A stretch of DNA of 4,278 nt. It comes from a virus. Lineage: Duplodnaviria; Heunggongvirae; Uroviricota; Caudoviricetes. Both the position numbers and the translations under genes were made by a program. The stretch lies in the IMG/VR virus record IMGVR_UViG_2703718871_000027. One strand, 5' to 3'. The notes under the pieces are model-generated. The model did not search any database. It was given only the letters and a program-made list of their open reading frames with translations, and was not told the DNA's origin. Position 1 is the first letter of the stretch. The number at the start of each line of letters is the position of its first letter. Below, one piece after another: positions 1,316 to 3,871 of this stretch.

Positions 1316-1413
1316 CGAACAAGAGGCCAAAAAGAATACAGATTTATAAGTTACTGATTTTTAATGCTCAGCTGGTTTTTTATACATTAGTGAATTACGC
1401 GTTAAAGCGTGCG

Positions 1414-1450
1414 AAAAAAGGCATAAAACAAGATTTTATGCCTTTGTATT
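1414..1450. terminator. Candidate bidirectional intrinsic terminator downstream of int
   Basis: 10-bp stem aggcataaaa (1419-1428) pairs with ttttatgcct (1434-1443), loop caaga. Flanked by an A-run (1414-1418) upstream and TTGTATT (1444-1450) downstream. Stem is AT-rich, so predicted strength is modest. Confidence 0.4.
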
Positions 1451-1534
1451 AACATGAATTTAAATGATTTTATCCTGATTATTCCTCTTTCTGTAAACCA
1501 TGCGACACCAACATTTGCCAACTCTGAATCATCC

Positions 1535-1545
1535 TGACACAATCA
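1535..1545. repeat. Third copy of the TGACACAATCA motif, about 60 bp upstream of the alpA start
   Basis: Exact 11-mer shared with 1305-1315. Its position just upstream of alpA suggests a regulatory site. Confidence 0.3.
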
Positions 1546-1604
1546 GACACATCCCAACGCAATAGAACACGAAATAACTCTTTAAGAAACGAAAGGGGGC
1601 AATA

Positions 1605-1793
1605 GTGTTAAGCACTGATCGGTTTATACGTGAAAAAGAATGCGAAAAGCTAACAGGCCTTAGCCGCTCATGCCGCTACCGCCTGGAAAAGGCCGGACAA
1701 TTCCCATCACGTCGTAAACTTGGCGGGCGTTCTGTTGGCTGGTCTTTATCTGAGGTTTTGGCCTGGAAGGATAGCTGCAAGGCAGTTCACTAA
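1605..1793 (+). CDS. alpA: AlpA/Vis-family (MerR-like HTH) prophage transcriptional regulator
   Basis: 62-aa ORF with GTG start at 1605, preceded by SD AGGGGG (1594-1599, 5-nt spacer). The segment FPSRRKLGGRSVGWSLSEVLAWK matches the conserved AlpA-family signature (FP..R.LG.[KR]SVGW...E...W). Sits immediately downstream of the integrase, as in CP4-57-type elements. Confidence 0.85.
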   Translation: MLSTDRFIREKECEKLTGLSRSCRYRLEKAGQFPSRRKLGGRSVGWSLSEVLAWKDSCKAVH

Positions 1794-2623: not shown

Positions 2624-2634
2624 CAAAACAACAA

Positions 2635-2666
2635 CGCCCCGCAGTGATGGGAACACATACGGGGCG
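2635..2666 (+). other. Cassette-1 rightward leader hairpin (7-bp GC stem) ahead of a conserved RBS and ORF start
   Basis: cgccccg (2635-2641) pairs with cggggcg (2660-2666), 18-nt loop. Followed by TCTAACCAA, SD GAGG (2686-2689) and ATG 2698. The same order of elements occurs in cassette 2 (hairpin 3385-3411, TCTAACCAA, GAGGAG, ATG 3444). Confidence 0.4.
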
Positions 2667-2747
2667 TCTAACCAAACCATTAATTGAGGTAACGATTATG
2701 GCTATAAAAGAGCATAGCTTACTCTTTATACACACACAAACGCCCCG

Positions 2748-2767
2748 GAAACGGAATAATCCGTTTC
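2748..2767 (-). terminator. Weak hairpin at the 3' end of the cassette-2 leftward operon (downstream of B2)
   Basis: gaaacgg (2748-2754) pairs with ccgtttc (2761-2767), loop aataat. On the minus strand it is followed by a G/U-rich stretch (CGGGGCGUUUGUGUGUGU), not a clean U-tract. On the + strand a displaced T-run (2777-2780) follows. Confidence 0.3.
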
Positions 2768-2786
2768 ATAGTTCGGTTTTGTGCAC

Positions 2787-3014
2787 TCATCCTGGCGGTC
2801 GGTTTTTGCCGGATTTAAGCCGCCGTGGGTATTTATCGACAAAATCTTCAAGGGCAAATTTTTCTGGTGGCACTAAGCGCGGCGCTGGTGGTGGTATTTT
2901 TGTTCTGGTTAGTTCTTCCTCAACTCTGGCGCAGGCTTCTGACTGCCTTTGCCGGATGATTTCATCATCTTGCGTTTGCGTGTCTTGTATTGGTGATAGT
3001 GTGTTGTTGGTCAT
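2787..3014 (-). CDS. Hypothetical small protein B2 (75 aa, Pro/charge-rich), second gene of leftward cassette-2 operon
   Basis: ATG at complement of 3012-3014 with SD AGGG 7 nt upstream; stop TGA at complement of 2787-2789. Paralog of B1 with the same gene order and 57-nt spacing after the A gene. No recognisable domain. Confidence 0.4.
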   Translation of the reverse strand: MTNNTLSPIQDTQTQDDEIIRQRQSEACARVEEELTRTKIPPPAPRLVPPEKFALEDFVDKYPRRLKSGKNRPPG

Positions 3015-3035
3015 GATACTGCCCTGTAAAGCAAT

Positions 3036-3062
3036 GCGCCGTAGTACCTCACACCACGGCGC
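3036..3062 (-). other. Conserved hairpin between A2 and B2 (copy of 2295-2321)
   Basis: Stem gcgccgt (3036-3042) pairs with acggcgc (3056-3062). Identical stem and near-identical loop to the cassette-1 copy. Confidence 0.4.
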
Positions 3063-3071
3063 TGATAGTGA

Positions 3072-3251
3072 TTATTCTGATTCTTTGGCCTTGCGACGCT
3101 GGCGGTATTCAACTTCCCGCTTTAATGCAGCTGTAACAAACTGCCCTGTACTTTCGCCGGGCATTTTTACCGCCTCAACATTGTTCATAACTTCATGTGG
3201 AACCCTTGCCGCAACTGTTTGTGATTTTGCGTTTACTGCTTTTGTCGCCAT
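3072..3251 (-). CDS. Ribbon-helix-helix (Arc/MetJ-like) DNA-binding protein A2, 59 aa; putative cassette-2 repressor
   Basis: ATG at complement of 3249-3251 with SD GAGGGG 8 nt upstream (an in-frame GTG 9 nt further upstream is possible but has no SD); stop TAA at complement of 3072-3074. Sequence MATKAVNAKSQTVAARVPHEVMNNVEAVKMPGESTGQFVTAALKREVEYRQRRKAKESE aligns with the Arc repressor fold pattern (beta-strand, P-x-E-V helix A, G-x-S turn, helix B). Paralog of A1. Confidence 0.65.
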   Translation of the reverse strand: MATKAVNAKSQTVAARVPHEVMNNVEAVKMPGESTGQFVTAALKREVEYRQRRKAKESE

Positions 3252-3280
3252 GTTGAGCACCCCTCATAAAAAACAAATGC

Positions 3281-3354
3281 AGTATGCAGGAAAAAAAACA
3301 AGTGTTCAACACTTGACGTGTTTAACACCTCGATTTAAATTGGTGTTCAACACC
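3281..3354. promoter_or_regulatory. Cassette-2 divergent promoter/operator region with three GTGTT-N-AACAC palindromes
   Basis: Palindromes at 3302-3312 (gtgttcaacac), 3318-3328 (gtgtttaacac) and 3342-3354 (ggtgttcaacacc). Rightward promoter: -35 TTGACG (3313-3318), 17-bp spacer, -10 TAAATT (3336-3341); the sites sit upstream of -35, in the spacer, and over the predicted start site. Leftward promoter: -35 TTGAAC (complement of 3304-3309, inside the first site), 17-bp spacer, -10 CATACT (complement of 3281-3286). Confidence 0.55.
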
Positions 3355-3384
3355 TTATTTAGGCAAGGTGTAGAAACGACGAAA

Positions 3385-3411
3385 CCCCGCACTGTAGGAG
3401 CAGTAACGGGG
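3385..3411 (+). other. Cassette-2 rightward leader hairpin (counterpart of 2635-2666)
   Basis: Outer stem ccccg (3385-3389) pairs with cgggg (3407-3411); inner stem actg (3391-3394) pairs with cagt (3401-3404); loop taggag. Followed by TCTAACCAA, SD GAGGAG (3433-3438) and ATG 3444. Confidence 0.4.
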
Positions 3412-3443
3412 CTTCTAACCAACAACGTAAACGAGGAGCCGTT

Positions 3444-3638
3444 ATGGTTGCCGTAAATCATATACCACACCTTGTACACACACAAACGGCCTTTGTGTGG
3501 CGTTTTCTGGCACTGAGTGCCGGAGAATCTCAAATAATCCACGTAACCGCCTGGACGGAACGCGAAGCACGTAACCGTTGCCCGTCAGGTTGTGTTGCTG
3601 TATTCGCCGCCCGTATTCGCCAGGGGGTAGGCTTATGA
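3444..3638 (+). CDS. Hypothetical protein (64 aa), first gene of rightward operon
   Basis: Strong SD GAGGAG with 5-nt spacer to ATG 3444. N-terminus M-[AV]-[IV]-x-x-H-x-x-x-[FL]-[IV]-H-T-Q-T is shared with the cassette-1 start at 2698. Stop TGA (3636-3638) overlaps the next ATG (ATGA), indicating translational coupling. Caveat: hairpins lie inside codons 12-27, so the 5' part may act as RNA. Confidence 0.45.
   Translation: MVAVNHIPHLVHTQTAFVWRFLALSAGESQIIHVTAWTEREARNRCPSGCVAVFAARIRQGVGL
3479..3508 (+). terminator. Terminator/attenuator-like hairpin inside the 5' end of ORF 3444-3638
   Basis: cacacaaa (3479-3486) pairs with tttgtgtg (3492-3499), loop cggcc, followed by GCGTTTTCT (3500-3508). 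A second hairpin follows immediately: ctggcac-tga-gtgccgg (3507-3523). Confidence 0.3.
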
Positions 3639-3871
3639 ACAATAACATCCGTCCGGACGCAGCCGCCGAAGCCATCATAACGCTAATGCATGCGCTGATT
3701 GATATTTCTGTTATTGCTGACAAGGCGCATAAGCACGCCACCAGTGAAACAGAATATGCAGGGGCTTTCGTTCCTCATTCGCTGGCGGTTATGCAACTTA
3801 GTGCTGATATGGCGCTGAATGAGGCAGGCAAAATTCTTACCGCAGATATTCAAGGGGCGCACCATGCATGA
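3635..3871 (+). CDS. Hypothetical protein (78 aa), translationally coupled
   Basis: ATG 3635 preceded by SD AGGGGG (3622-3627, 7-nt spacer); the start overlaps the stop of the upstream ORF. The track ORF starting at 3578 has no SD, so the internal start is preferred. No recognisable motif. Confidence 0.5.
   Translation: MNNNIRPDAAAEAIITLMHALIDISVIADKAHKHATSETEYAGAFVPHSLAVMQLSADMALNEAGKILTADIQGAHHA

Follow-up and report, generated by a model that had tools for sequence, protein, structure and literature searches.

The two hairpins at the start of the Icd-like gene that heads a rightward operon in a phage satellite do not look like intrinsic terminators when folded and scored, and we give an even chance to the explanation that they are incidental structures of the coding sequence, located at a conserved and recombination-prone gene start. 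The DNA analysed here, which we refer to as the window, is the 4278-bp left end of the satellite. It contains genes for a tyrosine integrase and AlpA and, downstream of alpA, two tandem cassettes. Each cassette consists of a small hypothetical gene and a YlcI/YnfO-family gene in the leftward direction, a leader and a gene start in the rightward direction, and a divergent operator/promoter region. The cassettes correspond to a tandem duplication (2331-2760 and 3072-3527), and the full rightward open reading frame is reached only in cassette 2 (3444-3638). The genes that identify the island are the following:

1-1230: tyrosine integrase, from profile and open reading frame analysis of the window
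1605-1793: AlpA (PF05930)
2331-2510, leftward: YlcI/YnfO-family paralogue of cassette 1 (NF041551)
3072-3260, minus strand: YlcI/YnfO-family gene of cassette 2 (NF041551; the two paralogues match at E = 2e-16 and 4e-17)

The island is an EcCIEDL933-type capsid-forming PICI of the 15-kb class. Integrase and alpA lie in the window, and the remaining genes expected of this class are found in the closest full-length relatives (loci L001 and L002), where int and alpA are followed by replication and capsid/packaging genes. The order onward in the closest complete relatives is DUF4222, RepA helicase, SSB, PerC, major capsid, protease, portal, connectors, HNH and terminase. EcCIEDL933, the prototype of the capsid-forming PICI family (10.1101/2022.09.08.507074), shares the arrangement of int, alpA, an early operon that includes RepA helicase, SSB and PerC, and then the capsid, portal and terminase genes, and it differs in that the tandem duplication of the YlcI/YnfO-operator-leader cassette belongs to this window. 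Strains of O157 carry the same Icd-like gene (96.8% identity) adjoining roxA/pepT, and the gene is present in 826 of 5426 complete E. coli genomes (~15%), O157:H7 included. Elsewhere in the window, two hairpins lie 3' of the integrase gene (1381-1462, plus strand; the second is AAAGGCAUAAAA...UUUUAUGCCUUU), and this site is probably the int terminator; an Rfam match to BSnc120 at the same place (27 bits, gathering cutoff 114) and a match to CRISPR-DR3 in the window were both dismissed as chance. Just 5' of alpA, the stretch 1481-1558 (plus strand) has 27 C against 7 G in 78 nt, the highest C/G ratio of the window, and may be a Rho-loading stretch or some other unusual leader.

The Icd-like protein of 64 amino acids matches the NCBIfam model NF033153 ('host cell division inhibitor Icd-like') over residues 17-60 with 64.9 bits (cutoff 25, E = 5e-18), and 112 homologues bear an Icd-like name. 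In a tblastn search of the protein against phage records there was one distant match and none to P1 at E <= 0.01. We found no published work on the regulation of the Icd-like gene when searching for Icd-like together with PICI, EcCIEDL933, or c4, icd and Rho, and the paper describing EcCIEDL933 (10.1101/2022.09.08.507074) is silent on the subject. The elements leading up to the gene are:

3302-3312, 3318-3328 and 3343-3353: three operator-like palindromes GTGTTYAACAC that bracket the rightward promoter
3313-3341, plus strand: sigma-70-like promoter TTGACG-17-TAAATT of the rightward operon, from a consensus match only
3382-3421, plus strand: leader hairpin (3382-3414, -14.2 kcal/mol) and invariant CUAACCA (3415-3421)
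2634-2674, plus strand: cassette-1 copy of the leader hairpin and CUAACCA, from fold and comparison
3433-3438, plus strand: Shine-Dalgarno GAGGAG, 5 nt ahead of the ATG at 3444, read from the sequence
3444-3638, plus strand: Icd-like open reading frame, first gene of the rightward operon, from the reading frame call, NF033153 and the RefSeq annotation of relatives

The palindrome GTGTTYAACAC has three exact copies where 0.17 are expected. Cassette 1 has different operators (GGTGTATTTCACC/GGTGAAATACACC), and the YlcI/YnfO proteins of the two cassettes have also diverged, which suggests that the YlcI/YnfO gene at 3072-3260 is a candidate for the cognate repressor. At the other end of the gene, the stop codon overlaps the next start as ATGA (3635-3638), and a further overlap of 8 nt between successive rightward frames occurs at 3864-3871; both are consistent with translational coupling along the operon. 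The segment 3410-3487 is rich in C and poor in G (C/G 1.69, 96th percentile of the window; the cassette-1 copy is similar), which is compatible with a modest Rho loading site.

Both hairpins fall within codons 12-29 of the Icd-like reading frame:

3479-3499, plus strand: hairpin 1, 8 bp, with arms CACACAAA (3479-3486) and UUUGUGUG (3492-3499) and loop CGGCC, from folding
3500-3508, plus strand: tail GCGUUUUCU 3' of hairpin 1, in which the U-run 3503-3506 doubles as the 5' side of the extended hairpin 2
3502-3528, plus strand: hairpin 2, 12 bp including G-U pairs, with tri-loop UGA and a 7-bp core at 3507-3523, codons R20-E28, from folding

The earlier note had placed an 8-bp hairpin with its tail directly after the HTQT codons. 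The hairpin and the tail are real, but the 5' arm is made of the H12-T13-Q14 codons themselves: it runs from the third base of His12 through Thr13 and Gln14 to the first base of Thr15, and the 3' arm runs from Phe17 through Val18 to the second base of Trp19. On the incidental reading, hairpin 1 exists because the conserved peptide H-T-Q ... F-V-W is nearly self-complementary at the codon level. Three synonymous choices (ACA, TTT and GTG) suffice for the helix, 8-9% of the synonymous recodings of the same peptide match hairpin 1, and the full 8-bp helix appears in 8.4% of the recodings of HTQTAFVW. The stability of hairpin 1 is -8.6 kcal/mol in context and -7.0 kcal/mol alone (z = -1.1), and 21 of 200 dinucleotide shuffles are equally stable. 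The second hairpin, reported as 7 bp with a tri-loop at 3507-3523, is confirmed and extends to 12 bp, so that the U-run following hairpin 1 is base-paired. Hairpin 2 is unusual (z = -4.5; no shuffle in 200 and only 0.4-0.8% of recodings are its equal) and the two hairpins jointly are matched by ~1% of recodings, but these p-values overstate significance because the region was chosen for having hairpins. The gap between the two helices is 0-2 nt. The Icd-like reading frame as a whole is not more structured than its own synonymous recodings. A reading of hairpin 2 as a sigma-54 promoter (TGGCAC...) was rejected since the GG-to-GC spacing is off by 2 nt.

An intrinsic terminator is expected to have a stable G+C-rich stem followed immediately by a U-tract. 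The stem of hairpin 1 is AU-rich, with 3 G-C pairs in 8 bp, and GCG stands between the stem and UUUUCU, giving a tail score nT of 0.75 versus 4.95 for a sister island's isrK terminator. With the d'Aubenton-Carafa score, for which the threshold is d > 0, hairpin 1 reaches -71, hairpin 2 -51 and the best natural variant -19, compared to +19 for that isrK terminator. A permissive scan for terminator-like structures does include hairpin 1 among its 17 matches in the window (5.1 expected). An immediate U-tract is found only in relatives with the GCG codon for Ala11: in 28 loci with this codon hairpin 1 grows to 12 bp and -14.3 kcal/mol, with UUUCU immediately behind it (recoding p = 0.002). The GUA variant of the window is missing the extension. 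Neither the minimum free energy (MFE) nor the centroid structure of 3346-3560 contains a mutually exclusive antiterminator fold; in each of them the leader hairpin, a fold that sequesters Shine-Dalgarno and ATG, and the two coding hairpins are present together. The likeness to the leader-peptide attenuators of trp and his and to Rho-independent terminators consists of a hairpin followed by a U-run within a translated leader region, and the differences are the AU-rich stem, the 3-nt GC spacer, the lack of a competing antiterminator and the negative score. The proposal of the earlier note that a terminator-like hairpin controls the operon by attenuation or antitermination is not supported for the window, given three G-C pairs, the GCG spacer, a U-run that is itself paired, no antiterminator and a low score.

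Relatives were collected by protein alignment from IMG/VR and metagenomes (160 loci) and with a degenerate DNA pattern encoding HTQTAFVWRF (a further 96 loci); a scan of genome contigs with the single protein gave 2 loci, and the scans of IMG/VR and metagenomes were used. The Icd-like genes begin with one of four start types, namely type A, M..H.P.L.HTQTAFVWRF (the window), type B, MATTPTLVHSQTAFIWRF, type C, ..HNLNKYIWRF, and type D, MAVSARPYFVWRF. Types A and B share the motif H[ST]Q[TN]AF[IVL]WRF. Type B, which stands behind C4, keeps H[ST]Q..F[IV]W in the form CAT TCT CAA ACN GCC TTT ATC TGG, where hairpin 1 is impossible, and because the motif is kept there without the hairpin, protein-level constraint accounts for the conservation of H-T-Q and F-V-W. 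Types C and D keep only the core [FY][IV]WRF, and hairpin 1 is again impossible. Type C, directly behind the leader hairpin, has an early hairpin of its own (CCCGCAAGGGCGGG, p = 0.046); type B has no early hairpin, and the folding energies of types B and D are no more than ordinary.

The type-A block is bounded by mosaic joints on either side. On the left, the loci differ in N-terminal/Shine-Dalgarno variant (at least five), leader-loop type (several) and operator/promoter module (more than 10); on the right, the block continues into one of three gene bodies, FLALSAGES, FIAVGASD or FIALSTAQ, of which FIAVGASD and FIALSTAQ have no hairpin 2. The start module including hairpin 1 is kept where isrK/C4 rather than the gene body comes downstream. 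Hairpin 2 is missing from type-A genes whose body is FVWRFIAVGASD or FVWRFIALSTAQ and is altered in loci of the L002 type, and a change A3512C, present in 29 of 119 loci, breaks its central pair at a cost of 4 kcal/mol with no compensation. The hairpin-1 arms are identical in 128 type-A loci save one G-to-A singleton, and in 96 of the 96 IMG/VR matches. Across ~130 type-A loci the stems show near-invariant hairpin-1 arms, one uncompensated change in hairpin 2 and variable loops, and since the hairpin-1 arms never vary there is no covariation to use.

The earlier note had also argued for constraint at the RNA level. Among the 119 type-A genes with the same body, 1 of 13 synonymous third positions in the stems is polymorphic, compared to 3 of 3 in the loops (3488 is G/T/C, 3491 varies once in IMG/VR, and 3515 is G/A) and 8 of 24 third positions in codons 30-53. 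Fisher tests on these sites give p = 0.017-0.064 and a test of events in loops gives ~0.005, and the pattern is suggestive only, as the numbers are low and the loci are linked by descent and recombination. This part of the argument stands in modest form, as weak hints from sequence comparison that the RNA fold may be under selection; since the synonymous sites of the stems are almost invariant, a translation-sensitive pause or attenuator role is conceivable. The other part, which relied on the block shared by the two cassettes, is better explained by a truncated copy. The block TACACACACAAACG is present, as reported, at both 2729-2742 and 3475-3488. In cassette 1 it belongs to the following feature:

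2698-2742, plus strand: remnant Icd-like start (MAIKEHSLLFIHTQT; intact in P0037)

The remnant is cut at 2742/2743, a point equivalent to the middle of the hairpin-1 loop, and joined there to the 3' flank of the leftward genes of cassette 2. It has no 3' arm and is therefore uninformative with respect to an RNA hairpin. All of the ~12 remnant copies among the fetched loci are alike in junction and flank, which fits a single ancestral event. A side observation is that the rightward promoter and start of cassette 1 (2698-3456, plus strand) now face the leftward genes of cassette 2, with a frame open for 253 codons antisense to these genes; RefSeq annotates a partial Icd-like pseudogene here in O157. 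Transcripts from cassette 1 would be antisense to the candidate repressor gene of cassette 2, unless they stop at a hairpin at 2749-2768.

The leader hairpin (GCCCC..loop..GGGGC) covaries: among 24 variants 92.7% of the cells are paired, three pairs have compensatory changes, and none of 500 shuffles is its equal. It is located between the promoter and the Shine-Dalgarno of the type-A and type-C Icd-like starts (also in L003-L160), is found behind more than 10 different operator modules, and has loops that fall into discrete types. It matches no Rfam family and is unannotated. Its 3' flank GCUUCUAACCAAC has a faint likeness to the rrn boxA. The loop of the window's leader hairpin, ACUGUAGGAGC (3391-3401), is an exact 11-nt match to a site in the Shine-Dalgarno region that is targeted in other islands by C4 RNAs with a' = UUCCUACAGUG, which could be a trans-immunity site or a coincidence, the latter because other loop types show no such match. 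As a general rule, leader loops as targets of C4 a' were rejected: only the window type among the 24 reaches 11 nt (p ~0.02), which fails multiple testing.

Sister loci place an antisense immunity module, C4/isrK, at exactly the position of the start module, and their C4 scores 69-82 bits. L002 is the same as the window through ~3527 and then continues with isrK (RF01394, 61.8 bits), C4 (RF01695, 75.4 bits) and a type-B Icd-like start, so that the order in L002, L126-L131 and others is leader, reading frame start, isrK, C4 and Icd-like. Other islands have c4-a1b1 and C4 downstream of the type-A Icd-like gene and before a second WRF gene, and some have both arrangements. In Rfam searches, C4 (RF01695) was absent from the window (E <= 1) and from 3250-3660 (E <= 10), and neither stretch gave isrK, another credible family or, near the ribosome-binding site, the a/b target motifs (RF03163, RF01394); C4, isrK and c4-a1b1 were also sought in the window and in L001, the closest full relative, and not found. 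The window and L001 are without elements that their sisters carry, so the window is a C4-less member of the regulatory zone resembling P1 immI and P4. The HTQT block is not complementary to the a' or b' loops of C4. As a C4 target the HTQT block or hairpin 2 was rejected, the duplex energies being not clearly above shuffles (p ~0.05), and a 7-nt match of CACUGAG to the a2 site is within chance.

Several observations on the sister islands were made in passing. In L002 a single open frame of 187 codons, an 'ash family protein' (11444-12004), runs from the type-A start through isrK and C4 into the type-B Icd-like gene, and the estimated chance of no stop over ~123 codons of it is ~0.003. In many sister islands (L035, L055, L057, L065, L077 and L096, in these six at ~1729-1933, and L124, L125, L129 and L130), c4-a1b1 and C4 lie downstream of the Icd-like gene and control a second gene starting with MAVSARPYFVWRFMQC. 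A few of the loci go further: two C4 modules that differ in their a' loops occur in some islands, and ~20 plausible a' loop types were seen.

In P1, c4 reportedly blocks icd translation and through this, via Rho, the transcription of ant, which is itself said to need icd translation. The likeness of the window to the P1/P7 immI region (c4, icd, ant) is that a small Icd-type reading frame heads an operon of overlapping genes, and that sister islands hold C4, isrK and c4-a1b1 at this place. The differences are that the window has no C4 or a/b motifs, that the protein likeness is only to the NCBIfam 'Icd-like' domain, and that control in P1 is by Rho together with C4 RNA and involves no intrinsic hairpin. 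Likewise, P4-type RNA immunity (CI RNA with seqA/seqC) and the isrK-C4 modules occupy the same genomic zone in PICIs, but the window is C4-less and its leader is joined straight to the Icd-like gene. Rfam profiles of C4 and isrK match several GN-PICIs and HE-PICIs and detect relatives of P4 CI and seqA (PMC10111431), and in Gifsy-1 the translation of a small reading frame downstream of isrK gates anrP (PMC4825925). As a general idea, gating of downstream transcription by translation of the leading reading frame has good precedent, though in systems without a hairpin like hairpin 1.

Four other explanations of the hairpins have to be weighed against incidental structure. The one we consider fairly unlikely is a hairpin-stabilised pause combined with Rho polarity of the kind known from P1 icd-ant and P4 t_imm. 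In this model RNA polymerase would halt in the GCGUUUUCUGG tract behind hairpin 1 until the first ribosome catches up, and if the Icd-like reading frame were left untranslated, Rho would load on 3410-3487 and end transcription of the operon. The stem-versus-loop polymorphism, the C/G ratio of 1.69, the overlapping reading frames and the precedent of P1 icd translation all agree with this. The consensus of the elemental pause is G-10 Y-1 G+1, which G3499...U3508 G3509 fits, but so weak a match is expected about once per 32 nt, that is, at chance level; the rut-like signal is no more than modest, hairpin 1 is missing from start types B, C and D, and no regulator of Icd-like translation can be identified in the C4-less island. 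Related to this is a translation-sensitive intrinsic attenuator, in which hairpin 1 and the U-run terminate transcripts with an untranslated leader and a translating ribosome melts the hairpin and permits read-through. Hairpin 1 passes the permissive terminator scan, the relatives with GCG at Ala11 have their 12-bp stem abutting UUUCU, and the synonymous sites of the stem are invariant; however, the GUA variant in the window is without the extension, the stem is AU-rich and followed by the GCG spacer, d is -71 (-19 for the best variant) versus +19 for the isrK terminator, the hairpin is not kept in the paralogous start types, and there is no antiterminator fold, all of which makes this reading quite doubtful.

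The near-coaxial arrangement of the hairpins could also mark a post-transcriptional element, either a site of mRNA stability or processing (for example by RNase III or RNase E) or a binding site through which an RNA-binding protein of the island or the host tunes the expression of a toxic division inhibitor. Hairpin 2 is far more stable than chance, the helices abut within 0-2 nt, and stems vary less than loops, but hairpin 2 is polymorphic and lost in mosaic relatives, no candidate binding protein is evident, and there is no covariation, so that we regard such an element as unlikely. A very improbable alternative concerns the DNA itself, where the palindrome would be a recombination joint or a protein-binding site kept by module exchange between islands. 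While mosaic breakpoints flank the block on either side and the truncation of cassette 1 falls exactly at the palindrome centre, the cassette-1 junction is identical in all copies and has no sign of recurrence, and ordinary homology at the conserved WRF and HTQ codons explains the crossovers. As an operator, the hairpin-1 palindrome was rejected since its half-sites are related neither to GTGTTYAACAC nor to the repeats of cassette 1.

Under incidental coding-sequence structure, then, the Icd-like gene would head the early rightward operon of an EcCIEDL933-type PICI without a C4/isrK module, and the invariant block would lie between mosaic recombination joints, with the cassette-1 copy being a truncated gene start. 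Neither hairpin would then act as an intrinsic terminator in the window. Control of the operon would be exerted at the operator-flanked promoter (3302-3353), to which translation-coupled polarity through the tightly overlapping reading frames may add, by analogy with P1 and P4. The share of the hairpins in this control would be minor modulation, such as pausing or mRNA stability. We also considered whether the start module of C4-less capsid-forming PICIs may be a portable, self-contained translation-sensing device for pausing or attenuation that gates the whole early operon and functionally replaces the C4/isrK module, which seems to us a distinctly long shot. On this reading, and with equal reserve, the device would begin with the covarying leader hairpin and CUAACCA, continue through a CA-rich linker to the Shine-Dalgarno and ATG, and end in the double hairpin of the early coding sequence, U-run included.

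Both the satellite family and the kind of regulatory zone are known, and the locus is a new, C4-less member. Should the hairpins be incidental, as is most likely, the picture stays that of an ordinary Icd-like gene of this family. If, on the other hand, the structural constraint suggested by the polymorphism of stems and loops is real, it would explain how C4-less capsid-forming PICIs silence an operon encoding a potentially toxic division inhibitor and replication functions, and it would provide a compact, testable case of translation-coupled transcription control in satellites. Possibly more useful than the hairpins are the map of start types, the alternative positions of C4/isrK and the unannotated covarying leader hairpin.
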